Positions 34,864 through 64,000 of a DNA stretch of 64,000 nt are shown here, in pieces. A program made the position numbers and the translations under genes. Every line of letters starts with the position of its first letter. Within the stretch, counting starts at the first letter, position 1. The stretch covers positions 1-64,000 of the forward strand of contig JAVJQW010000043.1 of NCBI GenBank assembly GCA_040218735.1, given 5' to 3'. The notes below the pieces were generated by a model. It did not search any database. It saw only the letters and a list, made by a program, of their open reading frames with translations, and was not told the origin of the DNA. Source of the stretch: Deltaproteobacteria bacterium. Its GTDB lineage: Bacteria > Myxococcota > Kuafuiibacteriia > Kuafuiibacteriales > Kuafuiibacteriaceae.

Positions 34864-35878
34864 GTGGACCAGCGAAAGGACAACTTCGACGTCCTCGTCG
34901 TGGACGACGACGCCGTCACGCGGGCTCAGCTCCGCTTCCTCCTCATCCGCAACGGCTACGAAGTCACGGTGGCTTCGTCCGGTGAAGAAGGATGGGAGAA
35001 GCTGCAGCAGCGCCACTACCCGATCGTCATCACGGACTGGTCGATGCCGGGCATGAACGGCCCGGACCTCTGCAAGCTCGTTCGCGAGAACCTCGACGAC
35101 GAATACCTCTACATGATCCTGCTGACCGGCATGACCGAGAAGCAGCAGGTCGCGGTCGGTCTCGAGGCGGGCGCGGACGACTACATCACGAAGCCGTTCG
35201 ATTCGGGTGAGCTCCTTGCGCGCCTGCGCGTCGGGCGTCGCATCCTCACGCTTCAGCGTTCGATGCGCGAGACGCAAGCCAAGTTGCACGAGATGGCGCA
35301 CCAGGACGGCCTCACGAAGGTGATGAACCGACGCGCGATCGACGAGCAGCTCAACGAAGCCGTCGCGCGACTCGCACGTGCGACGCACCCGTCCACGGTC
35401 GCGTTGCTCGACATCGACTACTTCAAGAAGGTCAACGACACCTACGGCCACCAGGCGGGCGACGCGGTGCTGCAAGAGGTCGCCGGACGCATCAAGTCCA
35501 TCCTCCGCGGCTCCGACAAGATCGGACGCTACGGCGGTGAAGGAGTTCATCGCGGTCCTCGAGGGGGCGCCGGTCCACGACGCTCAGGAGGTCGCCGAGC
35601 GCATCCGCATGGCGGTCCAGGAGCTCCCTGTCGAGCACGGCGGCCAGGAGATCACCGTGACGATCAGCATCGGGCTCTGCGAAGCGCCCGCGGGCTACGT
35701 CGGTCCTGCGGCGCCGATCGTGGAGAAGGCCGACGAGGCGCTCTACGAGGCGAAGCGCGGCGGACGCAACCAGGTGGTGATCGCGGGGGCCCCTCGCGAG
35801 CCTGCGGAGACCGCCGACCCGGTGCACCTCATCACCTCCGCGACGAAGAAGACCGCTACCGCGGATCTCGCGAGCTGA
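34864..35878 (+). pseudogene. REC-GGDEF diguanylate cyclase with a +1 frameshift inside GGEEF (pseudogene or sequencing error)
   Basis: DGLT..NRR, DIDYFKKVNDTYGH..GD, RGSD I-site; GGC GGT GAA G|GAG TTC: removing one G at ~35542 restores GGEEF and joins the 35378-35878 frame (VTISIG, ADEALYEAKRGGRN). Confidence 0.88.
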
Positions 35879-37124
35879 GTCGATCCGCGACGGACTTGGC
35901 GACCTGCGCGCTCGGCGTGAGCGGGTGGTTGAGCGCCGCGAGGTAGACGTCCTGCCACGTGCCGCTGAGCGCGGCCCGCACCGTGAGCTCCTCGTACGCC
36001 TTCACGTGTTGGATCAGGCCCCGGATCTCGGCGGGCAGCGGTGCCTGCGGGAGCGGCGTCGCGCCGTTCGCGCGGACGTTGCAGGGGACCTCGACGCAGG
36101 CGCCCGCGGGGAGCTCGCGCACGGTGTCGCCGTTTTGGGTGTCGACGATCAGTCGCGCCGGTTCGTCGAGCGTGATCGCTCGGATAATCTCGAGCGCGGC
36201 GTGTGAGTAGAACGCGCCGCCTCGTTGGGAGAGGAGCTCCGGGCGTTCGTCGTTCTGCGGGTCTGCGTAGTACGCGAGGAGCTCGTCTTCGATCGCCATG
36301 ACCTGCTGCGCGCGGAGCTGCTCCGCGGCGCGCTGCTCGGCGACGGTGTCCGGGTGCAAGTAGTAGTAGCGGAGGTAGTCGGACGGGATCATCCCGAGCG
36401 CGCGGAGCAGCTCGGGGGGGAAGTCGAGGTCGGGGAGGTTCGCCGGTTTGTGTCCGCTGTCGAGGAGCTTGGCGACGTCTTCGAGGAGGTCGCCGAGGCG
36501 CTCTTCGCCGTTCACGCGGACGCCGCGCACGAACGACAGGTGGTTCAGCCCGACGGAGTCGATCTCGACTTCGGCGGGGGAGACGCCGAGGTGCGCGGCG
36601 ATCTCCATGCGCTGCGACAGCGGGATGTTGCAGAGGCCGATGGTCGTGATGTCGGCGTGTTGGAGCAGCGCCTCGGTGACGATCGAGACGGGATTCGTGA
36701 AGTTGATGAGCGTGGCGTTCGGCGCGACGCGCTGGGTGCGGCGGGCGATGTCGAGGAGCACGGGCACGGTGCGGAGCGCTTTGCTGAACCCACCGACGCC
36801 GGTGGTCTCTTGCCCGATCACGCCGTGGTCGAGGCCGAGGCGCTCGTCTTCGAGGCGCGCGGCTTGGCCGCCGACGCGGATCTGCACGACGACGAAGTCG
36901 GCGCCGTCGACGGCCGCTTCGAGGGTGGTGGTGGTGGTGAGCTGCGTACGTTCGGTCTGGCGCGCGACCATGCGCCGGCAGAAGTCACCGACGACGGCGA
37001 GGCGCGGCTCGTCGATGTCGTAGAGGGTGACGGCGTCGAGCGCGAGCGCTTCGGCGCCCTCGGCGAGTCCGTGGAGCAGCTCGGGGGCGTAGGTCGAGCC
37101 TCCTCCGACGACGGCGATCTTCAT
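35856..37124 (-). CDS. Glycoside hydrolase family 4 (6-phospho-beta-glucosidase-like)
   Basis: KIAVVGGGSTY, QIRVGG, GQETTGVGG, NFTNP, GLCN, GLNH. Confidence 0.93.
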   Translation of the reverse strand: MKIAVVGGGSTYAPELLHGLAEGAEALALDAVTLYDIDEPRLAVVGDFCRRMVARQTERTQLTTTTTLEAAVDGADFVVVQIRVGGQAARLEDERLGLDHGVIGQETTGVGGFSKALRTVPVLLDIARRTQRVAPNATLINFTNPVSIVTEALLQHADITTIGLCNIPLSQRMEIAAHLGVSPAEVEIDSVGLNHLSFVRGVRVNGEERLGDLLEDVAKLLDSGHKPANLPDLDFPPELLRALGMIPSDYLRYYYLHPDTVAEQRAAEQLRAQQVMAIEDELLAYYADPQNDERPELLSQRGGAFYSHAALEIIRAITLDEPARLIVDTQNGDTVRELPAGACVEVPCNVRANGATPLPQAPLPAEIRGLIQHVKAYEELTVRAALSGTWQDVYLAALNHPLTPSAQVAKSVADRLSSRDPR

Positions 37125-37198
37125 GGCGTCACCGCATAACAGGGGGGTGGGGCGACAGGCCATGGACTTGCCGGGCGATTGAAGCGAAGAACGGGGCC

Positions 37199-38518
37199 GT
37201 GGGGTCGCTCTCGACGGGCGCCGTGTTGCGGTACGCGGTCGGTGGGGTAGGGCAGAGCGTCCTGCCGCTGCTGGTCGGGACGTGGCTCATCGCGTTCTAC
37301 ACGGAGCAAGAGCATGCGTACCTGCTGTCGGCCGGGGTGCTCGGCACGGTGGTGATGGTCGAGCGCATCTTCGGGGCGATCCTGGAGCCGCTGATCGGGT
37401 ACGCGAGTGATCGTACGGCGTCGCGGTTCGGGCGGCGCCGGCCGTGGATCGCGGTGGGGCTGCCGGTGTTGGTGGTCGCGTATTTCATGTTGTGGTCGCC
37501 GCCCGCGGCGGACGGTCTGAACGCGACGTCGACGATCGTGTGGGTCGCGGCGTGTTTCCTCTTCTACAACGCGGCCTACACGGCGGTGTTCGCGCCGTAC
37601 AACGCGTTGCTGCCGGAGCTGCACCGCGCGACGAAGGAGCGGCTGCGGCTGTCTTCGTGGATGGGGATCTTCGAGGTCCTCGGTCAGATCGCGGTGTCGG
37701 TCGGGGGGGCGGCGCTGATCGGCTTGGGGGCGGTCGCGTGGTGGGGGCTGTCGTTCTCTTCCGGCTTCGCGGTGCTGGCGGCGGTCGCGGTGGCGGTGAC
37801 GTTGGTGACGATGTTGCCGGTGGTGCTGTTCACGCGCGAGGTCTCCGCGGAGCCGGCGGCGGCGGAGCTGGGGCTGGTAGCGGCGCTGACGGCGTCCTTC
37901 GCGAACCGGCACTTCGTTCGCTACGCGGTGGGGCTGTTGGGTTTTCGGATCGCGACGAACCTGGTCCTCGCGGGCATCCCGTTCGTGGGGGTGAAGCTGA
38001 TGGGTTTGACGTCGGCCGAGACGAGCTACGTGCCCGCGGTGATCATCGTGGTGGCCGTGTTGGCGTTCCCGGTGGTGCAGCGGCTGGCGAACCGGCACGG
38101 CAAGGCGCGGGTGTTCCGGTGGGGTGGCGTCGGGTTCGTGGGGTTGCTGCCGCTGATGGGTCTGGTGGACCGGCTGGTGCTACCGCCGCTCGCGGTGGGC
38201 GGGGTGTTGTTCGCGTTGAGTGGGTTCTCGGTGGCGACGCTGCTGGTGCTGCCCCGCGCGTTGCTCGCGGACATCGTCGACCACGACGAGACGCGTACGG
38301 GCCTGCGCCGCGAGGCGATCTACACGGGGATGTCGGGCATCTTCGAGAAGCTGGGCATGGCGCTCTCCGCGGGCATCGCGGGGCTGATGCTGGAGCTGTT
38401 CGGCCAGACGTCGGGGAACCTGCTCGGCGTCCGCCTCCTGGGCGTGGCGGGCAGCGTGGTGCTGGCGTTGTCCCTCGCCGTGTTCCGCCGCTACGATCTG
38501 GCGCCCTCCGAGGCCTGA
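37199..38518 (+). CDS. MFS transporter, glycoside-pentoside-hexuronide (MelB-like) family
   Basis: SDRTASRFGRRRPWI, PYNALLPEL, LLADIVDHDE..TG.RREAIY; 12 TM. Confidence 0.9.
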   Translation: MGSLSTGAVLRYAVGGVGQSVLPLLVGTWLIAFYTEQEHAYLLSAGVLGTVVMVERIFGAILEPLIGYASDRTASRFGRRRPWIAVGLPVLVVAYFMLWSPPAADGLNATSTIVWVAACFLFYNAAYTAVFAPYNALLPELHRATKERLRLSSWMGIFEVLGQIAVSVGGAALIGLGAVAWWGLSFSSGFAVLAAVAVAVTLVTMLPVVLFTREVSAEPAAAELGLVAALTASFANRHFVRYAVGLLGFRIATNLVLAGIPFVGVKLMGLTSAETSYVPAVIIVVAVLAFPVVQRLANRHGKARVFRWGGVGFVGLLPLMGLVDRLVLPPLAVGGVLFALSGFSVATLLVLPRALLADIVDHDETRTGLRREAIYTGMSGIFEKLGMALSAGIAGLMLELFGQTSGNLLGVRLLGVAGSVVLALSLAVFRRYDLAPSEA

Positions 38519-38664
38519 ATCGCGCATTTTGCGGCGATCCGGGGTCTCACGTATTCTCCGGGTGGCGGGGCGCCGATGGGGGGAGAAATCGCACGCGCGG
38601 TGTCAGGAGGCGGGGGAGGGCGACGTAGTCCCATCGGGGACTGGTGCATCTTCTCCCGACCACG

Positions 38665-41355
38665 ATGACCACCGCGAGCGACGCCCGCGGCGGGGTGCTG
38701 GCGCTCGGCGGCGTGGCCTTCATGCTCATGGCGGTCGCCGCCGCGTACCTGTGGCACGATCGCGGCGAGCCCGAGACGGCGGTCGCCGCCGCGGCGCCCG
38801 AGAAGCCGCTGAAGGTCTACTTCGGCGGCTGCCACGAGGTCCACGAGGGCCCGGTGTGCATGCTCAGCGGCACCGCGACGATCACGCTGTGGATGGAGGA
38901 CCCGGGGTACGAGCCCGTGGTGCTGGTGGATGGGCAAAAGGCTGTGACACGGGGTGCCCCGATCGACGGAGGTGTTCGCGTGCGAGTCGCCGTTTCATCC
39001 TCAGCCCGGCGTCTGACCATCGAACCCGATCGGTGGAACCTTCCCATTGAAAGCGCGCGGCATTTCCCAGCTGTCGACCGAATCCAAGCCGAGCGTATCG
39101 CACGGCCGGCCCACGCGCTCGCACAGGCTGTCCGCGCTAAGGATATCGCCCGTGATTCGCATGAACGCGCGGAACTGGCGTCGATGACCGCTCGGCTCCA
39201 CTACGACCTCAGGAATCGTGAGTGGAAAGACGACATCCTTCAATCCATCGAGCTACATCGCGTCAACGGATGTCTCACTGGAATGGCAAGAGACCTCGCG
39301 TTCGCTAGTCATCGCCTTCGCGATAATGGAGATATCGCGGGATCCCGTGATTCCCTCCGTCTGCTCGACGACGTTGCACGGAAGGCGCCGGAGTACAAAC
39401 TGGCGCATGCGTACTTCGACGCAATGCTCAAGAACCAGACTGGTGACACAAGAGCTGCTCTGGATGCACTCGACCACCTCAATCTGTGGTCCTACCGCCT
39501 TGCTGACCAAACATACCACGAGGCGTCAATATACCTAACCCTATTACTAATGTCCTTTCTTTCGCGTAGTTCGGAGACGCAACTGCTCCTCGAAAGACTC
39601 TCCGCGCAGGTGGCGAACACGCGAGAGCCCTGCGCAAAGGCTCGACTGCTAAATAACTTGGCGTGGTTCGGACGCGGTGTGGATGTCGATCGGAGCGTGC
39701 GTGCGGCGATGGAATCCGCACAAATCTACAGTGCTTCGTGCCCAAACGCCGAAGGCGATGTCCTCCTCCGGCTAACACTCGGGCGCCTCTACCTTCAGAA
39801 GGGTGATGCCGAATCGGTGCAGTCTACTCTGGCCTCGTTGGCGCGTTACTCACGGACCGAAATAAGCGCCCGTAATCAGATCGAGATTGATGACCTACGG
39901 GCGCACCTGGCTGCGCTCAATGGCGACGGAAACAGGGCTCTTCGGCTATTCGACTCAGTACGGCGTCGGACTGGGATTCACTATGAGGCCAAGCTCCATT
40001 GGAGCGCACTAGTTGGTATCGCAGCGGCGTACCTGCGTGACGGTCAAACGAGCCTTGCGGTCGAGACTCTACAGGAGGCAGAACGACTTGTGGATCTTCT
40101 TGTCCTTTCGATCCCACTCGGCGAAGGGAGGACTTCTTTCACAGACGAAATGGGTCGCTCATCAGAGATGCTGGTCGAGGTCCACCTCGACGACGGCGAT
40201 CTAGACGCAGCTATGAGAACCGCTGCAGCTAGTATCCGAAGAGCATCAAGCGCTCTTGCTCTGGCCGCGCGAGTGTCAGCGCTGCCAGCTGACATACGGG
40301 GCAGATTCCGAGATCGACTCGAATCCTACCGTGCGGATCGCCAGCAACTAGCGTCGATTGTTCGTGATGCCTGGAGACTGCCGACGACGCAGCGTCGGCG
40401 AATGGAACACCGCCGCCTGCGACTTGAAGCAAAGTTGACTCGGCATCTTGACGCAATGGTGTCCATGGCTGAGCTTGACTGGAGACAGGACGAACGGCCC
40501 CTTGAAACTACAAGTGGAGAACTCGTTCTCTATCCGACGGCCGATGGCTTTGTAGCGCTACTTCGCCTCTTCGGCGGCCTCGAGTGGACGAAGATATCCG
40601 GTGATCTGGAGACGAACCTGAGAGATTGGCTAGCGCTAAGTCTGAATCTCCGGGGCGGTGAGTTGCATCGACTTTTCGTACTTTCTCACCCAAAGCTGTT
40701 ACAGATACCAGTAGACCGGCTAGTCAGTCAGTTGTCGCCGTCTCCTGTCGTTACTGCCTACTCCGCCGGACTGTTGCAAGCACATCGGCCGAAGAGGCCA
40801 AAGCGAGCTCTTGTTGTCGGTGATCCGGACGGCACGCTGCCGCAATCGCGGTCTGAGATTGAAGTCGTGCGTCGACAATTGACTGCGAAGCGTTGGATGG
40901 TAGACGTGGTAGTAGGTGACGACGCCCGAAGGGAGACGATTCTCGCGAGCCTATCAGATGTGCGTTACGGCCTATTTCACTTCGCAGGACATTCAGCTTC
41001 ACGCGGGGTGTCGGGTTGGGAGAGCTATCTTAGGACGGCCGATTCCGACTCCATCACGGTTGCCGACATCTTTGCGCTCGAGTCGGTTCCCCCGGTTGTT
41101 GTGCTTTCCTCATGCGAAGGTGGCGGCGATGGGTTCTCGCCCGTTGGAATTGCTCAGGCGATGATTGCGCGCGGGGCAGTCGTGGTCATAGCAGCAACGC
41201 GTGATGTTGAGGACGGGTACGCAAGGAAGCTCGCCACCGAGCTGTATCGGCCGGAGGGTGAACTCCGGGTTGATGTCCGATTGGCTGAGCTAGGTTGGAA
41301 TGCACAGAATGTAGAAAACGCTCGTGCCGCTGGGTTTCGAACCTTTGTGAGGTAA
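38665..41355 (+). CDS. N-terminally anchored TPR-repeat + CHAT (caspase-like, clan CD) protease
   Basis: TM segment GVLALGGVAFMLMAVAAAYLW; helical repeats (KARLLNNLAW); LVVGDPDGTLP..EI; FHFAGHS (His) and VVLSSCEG (Cys). Confidence 0.9.
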   Translation: MTTASDARGGVLALGGVAFMLMAVAAAYLWHDRGEPETAVAAAAPEKPLKVYFGGCHEVHEGPVCMLSGTATITLWMEDPGYEPVVLVDGQKAVTRGAPIDGGVRVRVAVSSSARRLTIEPDRWNLPIESARHFPAVDRIQAERIARPAHALAQAVRAKDIARDSHERAELASMTARLHYDLRNREWKDDILQSIELHRVNGCLTGMARDLAFASHRLRDNGDIAGSRDSLRLLDDVARKAPEYKLAHAYFDAMLKNQTGDTRAALDALDHLNLWSYRLADQTYHEASIYLTLLLMSFLSRSSETQLLLERLSAQVANTREPCAKARLLNNLAWFGRGVDVDRSVRAAMESAQIYSASCPNAEGDVLLRLTLGRLYLQKGDAESVQSTLASLARYSRTEISARNQIEIDDLRAHLAALNGDGNRALRLFDSVRRRTGIHYEAKLHWSALVGIAAAYLRDGQTSLAVETLQEAERLVDLLVLSIPLGEGRTSFTDEMGRSSEMLVEVHLDDGDLDAAMRTAAASIRRASSALALAARVSALPADIRGRFRDRLESYRADRQQLASIVRDAWRLPTTQRRRMEHRRLRLEAKLTRHLDAMVSMAELDWRQDERPLETTSGELVLYPTADGFVALLRLFGGLEWTKISGDLETNLRDWLALSLNLRGGELHRLFVLSHPKLLQIPVDRLVSQLSPSPVVTAYSAGLLQAHRPKRPKRALVVGDPDGTLPQSRSEIEVVRRQLTAKRWMVDVVVGDDARRETILASLSDVRYGLFHFAGHSASRGVSGWESYLRTADSDSITVADIFALESVPPVVVLSSCEGGGDGFSPVGIAQAMIARGAVVVIAATRDVEDGYARKLATELYRPEGELRVDVRLAELGWNAQNVENARAAGFRTFVR

Positions 41356-41362
41356 ATTTGAG

Positions 41363-41824
41363 ATGAGATACAAACTTCTGTTCTTGACGATTCTGACGGC
41401 TGCAAATGCTACTGCTTGCATTCCTGTCCATCGCTGCGACTGCTGTGAGAAAGTCGTTGTGAAATGCGCTGACGGGCGCGGGCAGTCTGGCGATGGTGGG
41501 CTCGGTCCCGTTGGGCCTGACGCTCCCTGCCCACCATGCACCCTCTACATCTCGGACACCCAGCTCCAGGGCGTCCTGGATCCCAAGTACTCGAAGCACG
41601 AGTACCCGTTCACCACCGCCACCCTCACGGTGTTCAACGCCGCGGCGAATCCGATCGGGCAGGCGGTCCTTCAACCTGATCACCAGTACGGGGGGACGAA
41701 CATCGACCAGAAGGTCGTGTTCGATACGCCGCTCGACACGAACGACATCAAGTCGGCGTCGATTCGGTGGATCGACAAGAACGGGCAGGCCCTCGAGCAG
41801 CCGAACATCATGCTCAAGCCCTGA
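41363..41824 (+). CDS. Small exported protein / putative lipoprotein with Cys-rich N-terminal segment (CHAT partner 1)
   Basis: MRYK + hydrophobic stretch + ATAC; CDCC..C; CPPCT..L.G.LDP.Y domain shared with the next gene; 7 bp after the CHAT stop. Confidence 0.8.
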   Translation: MRYKLLFLTILTAANATACIPVHRCDCCEKVVVKCADGRGQSGDGGLGPVGPDAPCPPCTLYISDTQLQGVLDPKYSKHEYPFTTATLTVFNAAANPIGQAVLQPDHQYGGTNIDQKVVFDTPLDTNDIKSASIRWIDKNGQALEQPNIMLKP

Positions 41825-41854
41825 GTCGCACCTGCCCTCTCGGGCAGTGTTGCG

Positions 41855-41865
41855 CCCCCCCCCCC
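41855..41865. repeat. C11 homopolymer in the intergenic region
   Basis: tgcg ccccccccccc gcgg, preceded by hairpin ctgccc-tctc-gggcag (41832-41847). Confidence 0.85.
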
Positions 41866-41884
41866 GCGGCCTAAGCTCGCCGCC

Positions 41885-42274
41885 ATGAACACGTCCAAGA
41901 TGCTCATCATGGCGAGCGCGCTCGCGGCCGCCTTCGTCTGGGTCGCGCTACCCGCCGCACTGCTGAGCGCGAACCCGAACGTGTCGTGTCCACCCTGCAC
42001 CTACGACATCTCGCGCCAAGAGCTCACCGGCACCCTCGACCCCGGCTACACCGCGCACCCCTTCCCCTTCACCGGCATGACGCTCACGCTCGTGGACGGC
42101 TCCGACAACGTGCTCGACACGATCGCGGACCTCCCGCCGAGCTTTCAGTACGGTAGCACCGTGCTCGATCAGGTCATCGACACCGACGTCACCTCCGGCG
42201 TCGCCAAGGCTCAGCTCGAGTGGATGGACGACGACAACAACCCGGTCTCCCAGACGATCACCGTCGTCCCCTGA
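41885..42274 (+). CDS. Small exported protein, paralog of the upstream gene (CHAT partner 2)
   Basis: Signal peptide; SCPPCTYDISRQELTGTLDPGYTAHPFPFT..QYGSTVLDQ..W. Confidence 0.82.
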   Translation: MNTSKMLIMASALAAAFVWVALPAALLSANPNVSCPPCTYDISRQELTGTLDPGYTAHPFPFTGMTLTLVDGSDNVLDTIADLPPSFQYGSTVLDQVIDTDVTSGVAKAQLEWMDDDNNPVSQTITVVP

Positions 42275-42287
42275 GATCCAGGCCCCC

Positions 42288-44093
42288 TCAGAACGCCGCG
42301 TCGATGCGGGCGTCCAGCACGTCCAGCGGCACGCTAGCGCCCGTGAGGACCACGTTGTGGAAGCGCTTCAGGTCGAAGGCGCTCCCCGCGCGGGCCTCGG
42401 CGCGTGCGCGGGCTGCGAGGATGCGGTTCATGCCCGTCGCGTACGCCGTCGCTTGGCCGGGCCAGCTGATGTAACGCGCCGTCTGGCCGTCGGCGGCGCC
42501 CTGCGGGAAGCCGACGTTCGTCTGCATGAACGTGCTCGCCCGCGCGAAGTCCCAACCCATCACGTGCAGCCCCGTGTCCATCACCAACCGCGCCGCGCGG
42601 AACGCCTCGTACTGGAGCCGGCCCAAGTCACCGTAGGCGTCCCCCGCGTACCAACCCAGATCCGCCGCCAAGCGCTCCGCGTAGAGCGCCCAACCCTCCG
42701 TGTACGCCGTGTGCCGAGTGATTCGTCGGAAGAACGGGAGATCCAGGTCTTGCATGATCCCAATCTGCAAGTGATGCCCCGGCAGCGCCTCGTGATACGC
42801 CAGCGTCTTCATCCCGAAGCGCGCCTCCCCGGACCCACCCACCGTAGCGTAGAACGCACCCGGGCGCGCCCCATCCAACGACGGCCCGATGTAGAACCCA
42901 CCGCTCGGCGCGCCGATCACCACCACGTCCGTCGAAGGCAACACATCGAACGCCTCCGCCAATCGCCCCTCCGCGTCCTCGATGATCCGCGTGTACTCAT
43001 CCAGAATCTCATCACCCGGAACCACCCCGCCGTCCGTCACCAGCTGCCCGTACAGCTCCTGCAACGGCGCATCGCGCCGGTAACCCAACCCCTCGAACGC
43101 ATCCCGCATCTGCACGTGAATCCGCTCCAGGTCCGCCAACCCCTGCGCGTGGATCTGCTCCGCCGTGCTCGAAGTCGTCGTGTGGTGCCGCAACGCCGCC
43201 GCGTAGTACGCCGCCCCGTTCGGCAACGCCCCGACGCCGACCTCCGCCGGCGCCATGCGCGCCACGCGCGCCAGCGCCGCATCGAGCCGCTCGTACGCCG
43301 GAATCACGTCCGTCTCGATCGCAAACTGCGCCGAGACCAGCAGCTCCGCGCGCACCGACGACGCCACGTCGATGCCCCCGATCTTCCGCGACAACGCCGC
43401 ATAATACGGCGTACTCAAATAACCCTGTAACCCCGCGTTCTGCACGCGGCCACGAATCCAACCCACCATCACGGCCGGCGGCGCGTATCCACGTGAAGCA
43501 CGCTCCTCCACCACCGCCGCGACCTGATCGAGCTTGTCATCCACCCGCCACAACCGAGCGATGTAAGCCTCTGCATCCGCCATCGTCTCGAGCGGATGAA
43601 TCTCCGTGAAGAACAGCTCCGTCTGCGCCGGCTCACCCGCGATGATCGGCGACATCAGATACGCGTGATCGCGCCACGCGTACGCCGAGAGCTGATCCTC
43701 CAGATACCAAAGGTAGACGTCGTAAGTGAGCTGCTGCTCCGCCGTCAGCGCGCCGCGGTCCACCGCCATCACCGCGTCGCGAATCACCTCCACCACCGCG
43801 TTGGTCTCGCCCGCGAACGCGTCCGAACGATCGTCCAACCGCACCGCGTCCTGCGGATACTTCGACTCCAACTGCAACTCGAACAAAGACTCCGGGCTCC
43901 GCCGCAACAAGTGCTCGAACGACAGCTCCACCAGCGCGTCGAACGCCAACCCCGACAGCGACGACGAAACCTCCGCCGCCGACGGCAACACGTGCGCCGG
44001 CGGCTCCGCGGGCCGCTCACGCGCAGGCCCGTCCGTCTTGTTGTCCCCGCTACACGCCGCGAGCAGCCCGAGGAACCAAAGAGCGCGCTTCAT
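42288..44093 (-). CDS. DUF885 family lipoprotein
   Basis: Lipobox LAAC; LAYHEALPGHHLQ, EGWALYAE, RAARLVMDTGLH, RYISWPGQATAY, FDLKRFH. Confidence 0.92.
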   Translation of the reverse strand: MKRALWFLGLLAACSGDNKTDGPARERPAEPPAHVLPSAAEVSSSLSGLAFDALVELSFEHLLRRSPESLFELQLESKYPQDAVRLDDRSDAFAGETNAVVEVIRDAVMAVDRGALTAEQQLTYDVYLWYLEDQLSAYAWRDHAYLMSPIIAGEPAQTELFFTEIHPLETMADAEAYIARLWRVDDKLDQVAAVVEERASRGYAPPAVMVGWIRGRVQNAGLQGYLSTPYYAALSRKIGGIDVASSVRAELLVSAQFAIETDVIPAYERLDAALARVARMAPAEVGVGALPNGAAYYAAALRHHTTTSSTAEQIHAQGLADLERIHVQMRDAFEGLGYRRDAPLQELYGQLVTDGGVVPGDEILDEYTRIIEDAEGRLAEAFDVLPSTDVVVIGAPSGGFYIGPSLDGARPGAFYATVGGSGEARFGMKTLAYHEALPGHHLQIGIMQDLDLPFFRRITRHTAYTEGWALYAERLAADLGWYAGDAYGDLGRLQYEAFRAARLVMDTGLHVMGWDFARASTFMQTNVGFPQGAADGQTARYISWPGQATAYATGMNRILAARARAEARAGSAFDLKRFHNVVLTGASVPLDVLDARIDAAF

Positions 44094-62069: not shown

Positions 62070-64000
62070 GTGCTCGCCTGGACTTCACCTTCGCTGGGCT
62101 CCCGCGTGCCGATCGCGGCGTTGGCCGGGCTGGTCGCGGCGGTGGTTGGACTCGACGGTCCACCGCACACCTCGGCGCGTGCGCAGCTGCTGGGGTTCGT
62201 TGCGGTCGAGCGCGACGCGGATGGCTTGGTCTACGTCTTCGACGCCGAGCACACGCCGTTCGTCGTCGCGGACGCGGCGCCCGAACGTGTCGAGCTCGCG
62301 GCGGACGTGCTCCCGCATCCAAGCGATTGTTCTGCGCGCTGTCGCATCGACGTCACGTTCCCGAGTCGCGCCGAGCTGCAGACGTTCGTGGTCGACGACC
62401 ACATCTGGCGCGTTCGCGTCGTGCCCTCGCGGTGGCCATCGCTCGACGCTGCACGCGAGGCGGCGGACGCTGACCGTTGGGGCGACGCGTTCGCCGCGCT
62501 CGACGCCATCCGCCCCAAGGATCGGCTGGAGCGGATCGCCGTCGCGACGGCCGCCGCCTCGTTCGCGCGTCGACGCGGAGACACCGCCGGATACGTCGAA
62601 GCCGTCGAACGGTGGGGCCGCCTCGCCCGGCGCCTCGACGTCCCGAGCGAGGTGAGCCGCTCGCTCCGCACGCAGGCCTTCTTGGCGTTCTACCGCCGCG
62701 ACTTCGACGCGGTGTTTCCGCTCTTGGATCGCGCCGAGGTCATCGACGCCGACATCGCCAATACTTCGGGCCTCGTTCGCGCTGCCGCCTATCGCAGCCT
62801 GACGCTGCGAGAGCTCGGTCGTTTCCGCGACGGGATGCAAGTAGCCGAGGAAGGCCGACGCCTCGCGCTCGACGTCGGGCTCACGGAAGACGCGGGGACG
62901 CTCGGCGCCGCGATCGCGCGCATCGCGCTGCACTCGGGCGACTACACACGTGCGCTGAAGGAGCTCGACCTCGCCGCTGATCGCGTCGCGCCGCACGAGC
63001 GCGCAGGGGTGCTCGTCGAACGCGGCTGGACGCTCGCCTCTGCGATGGTCGCGGGCGCCATCGAGGTCGACTGGTCGAAGCCGCGCGCCGACTTCGAACG
63101 TGCGTTGCGCCTCGCGAGACGCGACGGCTTGCCGGTCCCGGAAGCCAACGCGCTCGTCGATCTCGCGTGGCTCGATCACCTCGAGGGTCGCGATGCCGCC
63201 GCGGCGCGCCTGCAGGGCCTCGATCTCGAAGCGCACCCCGTCGCGCAGGTCTTCGTGCAGATCGTGGTCGCCACGCGTGCGCGGGAGGAGGGGCGGTTAG
63301 CCGATGCCCGGGCGGGGTTCGAGCGGGCGCTCGCGATGGCGCACGCGGGCAGCGACGAGACCTCCAACCTGGCCTGGCGCGCGACGTACGGTCTCGCGAA
63401 GACCGCGGCGGCGGCGGGCGAAGACGCTCGCGCCGCACAGCTGTTCGATCGTGCGCTCGACGCGCTCGATCGCATCGCGCGCCACGTCGAGATCCATCGT
63501 GCGCGGGCGTTGTTCGCGCAGGATCGCGCGGGGCTCGTCGACGATGCCATCCGCGCTCACCTGTCGCGGGGTGACGTCGCTCGGGCGATGGTCGTGGCGG
63601 ATCGCGCGCGGCTCCTCGTGCTCGAACCGCTCGCATACCGCTCGGCGCTGGAGGGGCTGGACGAATCGCAGCGGTCGGCCTGGCGGCGCGCGGTCTTCGA
63701 CTACGAACGGACGCGCGGCATCTACGAACGGCGCGCGGGCGGGGCGGAGCTGATCCCCGCCTCCCGGCTCGACGCCTATCACCGCGAGACCGAGCGCCAG
63801 CGCGAAGAGCTCCAGGTGCGATTCGACGCGGCGACGGCGATCCTCGACGCGAGCGGCGTCGTCGCGGACTCGGTTCGACTCGGAACGGACGACATCACCG
63901 CCCGCGTCGGACCGGGCCAAGGGCTGCTCTACTTTCACGCCGCCGCCGACGGGACGTACGTCGCGTTCTTCGTGACCGAGGAGCGCATCGAATACGTGGT
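62070..64000 (+). CDS. TPR-repeat protein homologous to the TPR-CHAT at 38665; 3' partial, CHAT domain predicted beyond the window
   Basis: Manual translation is open from GTG 62070 to the window end; hydrophobic N-terminus; WRATYGLA..RALFAQDR..HLSRGDVARAM aligns with WSALVGIA..RTSFTDEM..HLDDGDLDAAM. Confidence 0.78.
   Translation, partial: MLAWTSPSLGSRVPIAALAGLVAAVVGLDGPPHTSARAQLLGFVAVERDADGLVYVFDAEHTPFVVADAAPERVELAADVLPHPSDCSARCRIDVTFPSRAELQTFVVDDHIWRVRVVPSRWPSLDAAREAADADRWGDAFAALDAIRPKDRLERIAVATAAASFARRRGDTAGYVEAVERWGRLARRLDVPSEVSRSLRTQAFLAFYRRDFDAVFPLLDRAEVIDADIANTSGLVRAAAYRSLTLRELGRFRDGMQVAEEGRRLALDVGLTEDAGTLGAAIARIALHSGDYTRALKELDLAADRVAPHERAGVLVERGWTLASAMVAGAIEVDWSKPRADFERALRLARRDGLPVPEANALVDLAWLDHLEGRDAAAARLQGLDLEAHPVAQVFVQIVVATRAREEGRLADARAGFERALAMAHAGSDETSNLAWRATYGLAKTAAAAGEDARAAQLFDRALDALDRIARHVEIHRARALFAQDRAGLVDDAIRAHLSRGDVARAMVVADRARLLVLEPLAYRSALEGLDESQRSAWRRAVFDYERTRGIYERRAGGAELIPASRLDAYHRETERQREELQVRFDAATAILDASGVVADSVRLGTDDITARVGPGQGLLYFHAAADGTYVAFFVTEERIEYV

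Follow-up and report, generated by a model that had tools for sequence, protein, structure and literature searches.

Among periplasmic caspase-like CHAT proteases joined to tetratricopeptide repeats (TPR), the passages on Myxococcus xanthus DdvA in PMC11506125 present this protein as the only studied case, with an unknown activating signal. CHAT and subtilase genes also lie around extracytoplasmic function (ECF) sigma factors of the group ECF54, which is described in the relevant part of PMC8999054 as having no anti-sigma factor. A precedent of another kind is the comQXP' locus of Bacillus subtilis, in which, according to the passages on it in PMC6334282, comQ, comX and the 5' end of comP are variable as a unit and set the pherotype. 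In this study, we analyzed a stretch of 64,000 nucleotides (the window) from a Deltaproteobacteria bacterium of the Kuafuiibacteriaceae (GCA_040218735.1, contig JAVJQW010000043.1, positions 1 to 64,000), which contains a TPR-CHAT protease gene, P0001, followed by the genes of two small exported proteins, P0002 and P0003. The most unusual feature of this locus, which the initial annotation missed, is a sharply bounded allele cassette that takes in most of the protease and the beginning of the neighboring lipoprotein.

The exported TPR-CHAT protease as such is already known; what is new here is the allele cassette and the link between the CPPC domain of the small proteins and the tails of S8 subtilases. 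A literature search, from which subscription journals were largely missing, found no paper on the cassette, on this CxxC domain or on the S8-tail link.

Results

The window lies on contig C17 of the source genome G000 (11.6 Mb, approximately 69% GC), and a same-genus genome, G001, which is 75% complete, served for comparison. All three genes are on the forward strand. P0001 (38665..41355) encodes an 896-amino-acid, membrane-anchored protein with a beta domain, TPR-like helices and a CHAT domain, and its ATG at 38665 lines up with the start of the G001 orthologue. The putative lipoprotein P0002 (41363..41824; 153 amino acids) has an allele-variable N-terminal part of 55 residues and a conserved CPPC beta-sandwich domain, and its secreted paralogue P0003 (41885..42274; 129 amino acids) has the CPPC domain almost immediately after its signal peptide. 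The ATG of P0002 comes 7 nt after P0001 (gap 41356-41362), as the initial annotation had noted along with the domain common to the two small proteins, and P0003 starts 60 nt further downstream. From this spacing we infer that the three genes are co-transcribed.

The cassette occupies 38935..41500 on the forward strand and contains codons 90-896 of P0001 together with the 7-nt gap; from P0002 it takes in the signal peptide, the Cys motif and most of the linker. Its left recombination flank is the conserved head of P0001, amino acids 1-89 (38665..38934, forward strand), which is 93-98% identical among four alleles and resembles the host in codon use, with a G+C content at third codon positions (GC3) of 0.97-1.0. 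Relative to P0001, the allelic proteins P0044, P0045 and P0047 are 98, 93 and 94% identical over amino acids 1-89 but 48, 44 and 36% identical over amino acids 90-896, with cores that are 37-42% identical among themselves. At the right edge, P0002 and its orthologue P0007 agree at 23 of 54 positions before CPPC and at 93 of 98 from CPPC onward.

The same edges were seen in DNA from other studies, for which four of 24 listed runs, one from each of four studies, were compared. The X2 contig (33,998 bp) matches the window over 37000-38934, substitutes 2569 letters for 2566, and aligns again from 41501, with 26/1935 and 46/1892 differing bases in its flanks. The X7 contig (33,485 bp) leaves at 38933, replaces 2573 letters with 2580 and resumes at 41507 (62/1934 and 111/2494 flank differences), and the short X4 contig, from a third study, departs at 38934 too. 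In these contigs the flanks match at 95-99%, and the intervening DNA is unrelated but of the same length. Read depth was zero over 39106-40977 in all four runs, save one stray short piece in X7. None of the runs had the allele of the window, and the four same-species alleles seen as proteins all differ, although the allele of the X7 contig may already be counted among them.

Each of the six alleles known at the protein level is a full-length open frame, and none has lost the His/Cys dyad or the Cys pairs. In the tree they form one clade against three paralogues, with branches of 0.5-1.1 in the core (0.6-1.1 within the species) as opposed to 0.01-0.04 in the head of the four close alleles. Because they form a single clade and three cassette segments give compatible trees, the phylogeny indicates that the six alleles travel as one unit and do not derive from paralogues.

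The composition changes at the same places. GC3 starts at 0.97-1.0 in the first 80 codons of P0001, falls to 0.44-0.68 up to approximately codon 60 of P0002, and returns to 0.8-1.0 thereafter. The values for the first, second and third codon positions (GC1, GC2 and GC3) are 0.69, 0.48 and 0.57 in the cassette against 0.67, 0.48 and 0.95. Since GC1 and GC2 are host-like and GC3 alone is low, import from a low-GC donor is disfavored, and drift in place would fit the composition better. Between G000 and G001, the cassette has a synonymous divergence (dS) of 1.8-3.4 and a nonsynonymous divergence (dN) of 0.61-0.68, whereas the flanking major facilitator superfamily (MFS) gene has 0.49 and 0.13, respectively. 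With both values far above those of the MFS gene and a dN/dS of approximately 0.2-0.4, the cassette appears to be old or fast-evolving, yet under purifying selection. In the G001 allele, the branch of the high-GC3 part was not clearly shorter than that of the low-GC3 part (0.50, 0.47, 0.63).

The catalytic domain takes part in this divergence. It is 42-53% identical between alleles and has not been homogenized, and TPR and catalytic domains have diverged evenly. By comparison, three other pairs of CHAT orthologues from G000 and G001 keep approximately 51-77% identity per 100 amino acids in their C-terminal parts. That the block holds even the catalytic domain, which is normally conserved, suggests co-adapted determinants spread over the cassette, either within the protease or from the protease to the N-terminal part of the lipoprotein.

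Two sources of such variation were rejected. Site-specific inversion or excision is at odds with the lack of repeats at the junctions. As for a diversity-generating retroelement, 38400-42500 has no long repeat, none of the five RVT_1 matches is on C17, and the block is 2.57 kb long with A still at 156 of 806 third positions.

A scan for a high-GC3 head joined to a low-GC3 body found four of the 4,573 genes of at least 300 amino acids, three of them TPR-CHAT paralogues, two of which are in complete clusters; 50 rows with the reverse pattern, mostly over-extended starts of open reading frames (ORFs), were set aside. In the source genome, C64:172299-174827 (GC3 0.96 to 0.60 at codon 169) and C50:30291-32990 (0.88 to 0.69 at about codon 200) each have a host-like head and a low-GC3 body and belong to complete sigma/anti-sigma/S8 clusters. 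The G001 orthologue of the C64 paralogue, which is in two pieces, has the same head/body split. The C64 and C50 genes may be further allele cassettes.

P0002 and P0003 have in common a 103-amino-acid domain, the CPPC domain (39% identity, E 3e-21), for which Pfam, NCBIfam and PADLOC gave no match, and to that extent it is indeed unrecognized; profile comparison relates it to the C-terminal domain of S8 subtilases. All nine full-length S8 lipoproteins encoded beside CHAT paralogues end in a domain of 100-125 amino acids that opens with PQP-x4-CPxC, and a tenth, shorter S8 protein, beside the fused paralogue on C23, is without it. In an HH profile comparison of 25 S8 tails with 30 small proteins, the two groups matched with a probability of 93.7% (E 1.9e-7, 89 columns), whereas three controls gave 0.1-1.9%. 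The tail profile combined the nine tails of the source genome with 16 from related genomes, the motif filter having passed 16 of 27 pieces and excluded 11 (five variant heads, three cut by contig ends, two broken and one without CxxC). With a profile made from S8 tails only, P0003 and P0002 were the first and second non-training ORFs of the genome (E 0.04 and 0.46).

When the tails and the small proteins were combined in one profile, small lipoproteins beside the S8-less CHAT genes on C52, C66 and C17:221939 ranked first, second and fourth among 68,956 ORFs. These lipoproteins, with a Pro-rich CxxC head, are at C52:216888-217400, C66:174105-174770 and C17:221293-221937, respectively, each adjoining its CHAT gene; a further one, C17:408761-409336, stands alone. 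The profile matches argue with moderate strength that the small proteins carry, as a free-standing unit, a copy of the beta-sandwich in which the cluster S8 subtilases end. Given the near-top ranks beside three S8-less CHAT genes, the tail domain seems often to remain beside the CHAT protease where the S8 catalytic domain is gone. A dedicated link between CHAT proteases and such small proteins, as initially proposed, thereby gains support from the S8 proteases, from the lipoproteins beside other CHAT genes and from linkage in related strains.

The predicted structure of P0003 is a seven-stranded sandwich (predicted local distance difference test, pLDDT, 84) that matched only generic immunoglobulin/fibronectin type III-like sandwiches (best Z 8.0, VIA); the Atlas had no relative at 0.9 or above, Foldseek had none at E 0.001 or below, and no solved structure matched by sequence. 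P0002 has a lipobox-like site at Cys19 that is non-canonical (ATAC; ISSC in P0007). A prediction of the complex of P0001 (amino acids 48-896) with P0002 (amino acids 20-153), run without folded controls, gave a score of 0.01 (mark 0.32) and was weighed neither way.

A second small variable spot is present in P0003, where the three residues before CPPC (41978..41986, forward strand) differ in all five P0003-type orthologues seen (NVS, DFA, NIP, IYG and GYP). From CPPC onward, the domain is identical at 91/95, 82/84 and 74/78 positions in close orthologues and at 77/95 in the farthest. The small indels of other contigs at P0003 fall in 41960-41964. In contigs of two studies (P0005 type), 33 bases of the P0003 gene, 42076-42108, are missing in frame; this could reflect either a naturally shorter form or, at a small repeat, an artifact of assembly.

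The wider small-protein family comprises approximately 30 representatives at 50% identity (29 of 31 hits kept, the other two, long repeat proteins, being excluded). Four times, contigs of the same size carry a small protein and a CHAT orthologue (33,998, 134,804, 100,631 and 4,367). G001 is syntenic at the locus, and no P0002 orthologue was found in this 75% complete genome, in which a contig break falls between the CHAT gene and the P0003 orthologue. A search of 401 genomes of the phylum gave matches only in G000, G001 and one borderline place. Scanning metagenome and genome contigs for the small-protein family found no relatives, a degenerate DNA pattern gave 16 loci without a convincing member, and a P0040 search gave a partial match on one 1.3-kb contig with no CHAT, S8 or sigma match on it.

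The protease itself is much as first described, an approximately 900-residue protein with an N-terminal membrane segment, TPR-like helices and an intact His/Cys dyad. Its single strong hydrophobic segment, a transmembrane or uncleaved signal segment at amino acids 11-29 (38695..38751, forward strand; Kyte-Doolittle value 2.27), peaks at 2.27-2.52 in five of the six alleles, the sixth, outside this count, having been called from a later start. Two weaker peaks (1.66-1.76) fall in CHAT-core strands and are mostly missing in other alleles. Just 10 residues, with no Cys or His among them, come ahead of the segment, and no delivery domain is recognizable on the protein. The AlphaFold model (mean pLDDT 67) has a beta domain at approximately amino acids 70-127 and helical repeats at amino acids 135-601, whereas the C-terminal part of about 120 residues (775-896) is poorly modeled and unreliable. 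Pfam CHAT (PF12770) matches amino acids 653-862 (E 4e-18, 66.3 bits against a cut-off of 24). The motifs FHFAGHS and LSSCEG are both present, and His776 (40990..40992) and Cys817 (41113..41115), both on the forward strand, are invariant in 31 of 31 aligned family members; we take them to be the catalytic residues by resemblance to the caspase motif.

The Cys pairs 56/65 and 323/359 are retained in 27-29 of the 31 members, and a crude pattern finds lipobox-like starts in eight of 17 listed family ORFs. Because of these conserved Cys pairs and the lipobox-like starts in about half of the paralogues, the TPR-CHAT part of P0001 is likely to face outward, into the periplasm, in line with the extracytoplasmic location first suggested. 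In a fold search with the P0001 model, M. xanthus DdvA (PDB 8rw5 and 8rot) ranked first and second, at low TM-scores of 0.17-0.18 and with a mediocre model, and further matches were 7y8t, 8d9f and 8eey (Craspase). The initial view that such CHAT proteases are cytoplasmic does not agree with DdvA, this top structural match, which is periplasmic according to the passages on it in PMC11506125.

Nor is the locus a free-standing system. The source genome has 16 strong CHAT paralogues, P0001 included; an anti-sigma-like gene lies within 3 kb of 13 of them and a fourteenth has such a domain fused to it, which leaves only P0001 and the paralogue on C52 without one. P0001 matches its paralogues over the full length at approximately 25% identity (E 4e-49 to 1e-25), and proteins of this TPR-CHAT family are present in 16 of 20 genomes of the bacterial family. 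The closest relatives are entered as 'Deltaproteobacteria bacterium' and more distant ones are Sorangium proteins, which suggests a myxobacterium-like source. The usual myxobacterial cluster consists of an ECF sigma factor, an anti-sigma factor, a TPR-CHAT protease and an S8 subtilase, and the P0001 locus is a reduced member of this 16-copy family.

What is missing can be read from the neighborhood. The flanking genes are an MFS transporter gene and a DUF885 gene, and between them only the protease and the two small proteins are encoded, with no S8 catalytic domain in cis. As the initial annotation stated, no sigma factor, gasdermin or CRISPR (clusters of regularly interspaced short palindromic repeats) gene adjoins the locus. 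No ECF sigma or anti-sigma gene of the CHAT-cluster family lies within approximately 23 kb of P0001; the nearest are in a complete TPR-CHAT/anti-sigma/S8/ECF cluster on the same contig, which runs from 62070-64000 of the window on to C17:68294 (C17:62070-68294). Neither Cas7-11 nor a CRISPR array was found among the flanking genes, the rest of the genome having had no Cas scan. PADLOC gave just weak partial CHAT-type matches at the locus, and no defence genes adjoin it. Elsewhere in the genome, C14:24192-25768 is the sole sigma/anti-sigma pair of the cluster family without a nearby CHAT gene, and is a candidate target in trans of the two orphan proteases.

Upstream of P0001, a promoter-like motif, AGGA-N15-CGTAG (38605..38628, forward strand), resembles the consensus of the ECF type. 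It occurs twice in the window against 0.19 expected, both times ahead of a CHAT gene (38605 and 62034), and at the locus, some 60 bases upstream of P0001, 33 of 34 bases are kept in G001, where the DNA further upstream diverges. Genome-wide, the motif is not enriched over other spacings. As a weak lead, it would fit control by an ECF sigma factor. No sigma-70 promoter or terminator above chance was found at the locus. Right after the motif is a short hairpin, AGTCCC/GGGACT (38627-38642), of which, by eye, G001 keeps most of the stem and changes the loop.

Some other genes deserve mention. C23:82478-86134 encodes a protein that, in the manner of DdvA, joins an anti-sigma-type N-terminus and a membrane segment to TPR-CHAT, and the short S8 gene follows it. 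C56:4313-4681, a 122-amino-acid ORF just upstream of a CHAT paralogue, resembles an internally deleted duplicate in which the N-terminal start of the paralogue is joined to the CHAT C-terminal end. C54:138373-146745 encodes a 2,790-amino-acid lipoprotein in which propeller-like repeats and long TPR arrays are combined with a CHAT domain at the C-terminus, and such giants are also found in other genomes of the bacterial family. In the window, a diguanylate cyclase-like response regulator gene (34864-35878) is apparently split across two reading frames near 35540.

Discussion

We tentatively favor, aware that it could well be wrong, the reading that the locus is an allele-matched protease/partner recognition module under balancing selection, with output to an anti-sigma/ECF pair in trans. 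The protease would face the periplasm and be inactive at rest, and the partner it recognizes would be the CxxC beta-sandwich together with the short variable peptide ahead of it, displayed in two ways, in tethered form by the lipoprotein and in free form by the secreted paralogue. If it matches, the partner would activate the protease or be cut in the Gly/Pro linker, and the output would be relayed to an anti-sigma/ECF pair encoded elsewhere, at which the one orphan pair on C14 and the two CHAT genes lacking such a pair hint. As protease and partner would have to match, they would be inherited as a single non-recombining block. Alleles kept by balancing selection that are too divergent to recombine have sharp edges at the nearest conserved blocks, and their silent sites drift toward AT. 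Balancing selection would maintain several blocks per species here, the silent sites having drifted in this way, and the locus would act in the manner of pherotype or self-recognition loci, its receptor being caspase-like.

Several observations weigh against this matched-partner reading. The CPPC domain is approximately 95% identical across alleles, so specificity would sit in very few residues, and the lipoprotein N-terminus may be in the cassette merely since CPPC is the first conserved downstream block available for recombination. The C64 paralogue has the same GC3 cliff and head/body divergence in G000 and G001 with no partner gene seen inside the block, and the G001 orthologue of the C56 paralogue is equally divergent (43%) without low GC3. 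The relation to the S8 tails falls to a non-significant 11% with the nine tails of the source genome alone and to 1.2% without the CxxC head, in an unchanged register. For the S8-less CHAT genes on C23, C56 and C42, the neighboring candidates lack support, with ranks of just 34, 240 and 2778, and C17:408761, a small relative, is 184 kb from any CHAT gene. The data on linkage of CHAT and small-protein genes all come from close kin and are not independent. Trans-species polymorphism was not shown: the core tree is without conflict with the species split, and because of this agreement very old alleles and fast evolution cannot be told apart.

Some of these points serve a somewhat unlikely, though serious, alternative, in which the TPR-CHAT body is an immune-like receptor diversifying in an arms race with outside molecules, such as proteins of phage, predators, prey or competitors. 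The small proteins would then be constant accessories, an adaptor, inhibitor or substrate for all alleles, and the lipoprotein N-terminus would hitch-hike. The approximately 95% constancy of the partner domain, the head/body GC3 pattern in three TPR-CHAT paralogues, two of them in complete clusters, and the variability of the C64 paralogue without a partner gene inside the block are in its favor. Moreover, the passages on DdvA in PMC11506125 describe it as controlling a defence island with CRISPR and CBASS (cyclic oligonucleotide-based anti-phage signaling system), and its TPR-CHAT part as proposed to sense a phage signal. However, the divergence is even over TPR and catalytic domains with no sensor patch, the second variable spot lies directly ahead of CPPC in the secreted paralogue, and no defence genes adjoin the locus, where PADLOC found just weak partial CHAT-type matches.

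The remaining two explanations fit less well than either the partner or the sensor reading. The locus could be an orphaned, weakly constrained relic that has lost its sigma factor, anti-sigma factor and S8 catalytic domain and whose functionally equal alleles arise by random swaps with homologous DNA of diverged relatives through the conserved flanks, and the family's usual output genes are indeed missing, CHAT orthologues diverge fast anyway (43-70% between G000 and G001), and the allele branches are long with an amino-acid make-up shifted away from GC-rich codons. This is improbable in view of six of six full-length open frames with dyad and Cys pairs intact, a dN/dS of approximately 0.2-0.4 and cassette lengths that agree within 3-7 nt; that the allele of the window was in none of four runs and that four same-species alleles all differ are also hard to obtain without selection for diversity. 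More improbable still is a polymorphic toxin/immunity pair, with the protease as a weapon on neighboring cells and the small exported proteins as allele-specific inhibitors shielding the producing cell. Polymorphic toxin loci are indeed laid out in this way, the head being constant, the low-GC catalytic body variable and a small gene following, here after 7 nt. Against such a pair, the putative immunity proteins have a folded domain that is approximately 95% constant across alleles, the protease has a membrane anchor and no recognizable delivery domain, and its paralogues sit in sigma-factor signaling clusters.

Taken further, the matched-partner reading would make this a self/non-self or strain-dialect system, in which a periplasmic caspase-like receptor takes the few residues before a disulfide-capped beta-sandwich as a password, and the same domain on S8 proteases is the activator for the whole TPR-CHAT/ECF family; in so broad a form this is unlikely. 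The locus shows which piece of the cluster stays when the rest is lost, namely the C-terminal CxxC domain of the S8 protease, which makes this domain a candidate for the family's ligand or substrate. For matched versus mismatched combinations, the species already offers a panel of at least four natural alleles between near-identical flanks. If specificity is allele-matched, the locus would be a caspase-based recognition locus in bacteria; otherwise it remains a clear example of a protease gene that is hypervariable within a species.

Comparison with known systems

P0001 and DdvA (with DdvS; 8rw5, 8rot) both have a TPR-CHAT part with a His/Cys dyad; DdvA is a single-pass membrane protein with this part outward, according to the passages on it in PMC11506125, and P0001 is predicted to have the same topology. 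In those passages, DdvA is itself an anti-sigma factor with a cytoplasmic zinc domain, encoded beside its sigma factor. Unlike DdvA, P0001 has approximately 10 residues before the membrane segment and a small beta domain after it, no sigma factor in cis, and two small putative exported partners; it also has an allele cassette, of which the DdvA passages report none. With the four-gene ECF/anti-sigma/TPR-CHAT/S8 cluster, the locus has in common the protease family and the CxxC beta-sandwich, there fused to S8. In contrast to that cluster, the sigma factor, anti-sigma factor and S8 catalytic domain are absent, the beta-sandwich is free-standing and duplicated, and the protease body is a cassette.

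Craspase (Csx29/Csx30/CASP-sigma), as described in the passages of PMC11506125, likewise has a TPR-gated CHAT protease with a neighbor-encoded partner, but is cytoplasmic and RNA-triggered through Cas7-11, whereas P0001 has an N-terminal membrane segment. The resemblance to comQXP' is one of organization, for in both cases a polymorphic block of signal and receptor parts, putative ones at this locus, has its edge inside a gene, conserved flanks and several groups per species, as far as comQXP' is covered in the passages of PMC6334282. There is no homology between the two; comQXP' has a histidine kinase as receptor, a modified peptide as signal and proven specificity, whereas at this locus the receptor would be a caspase-like protease and the specificity is inferred.

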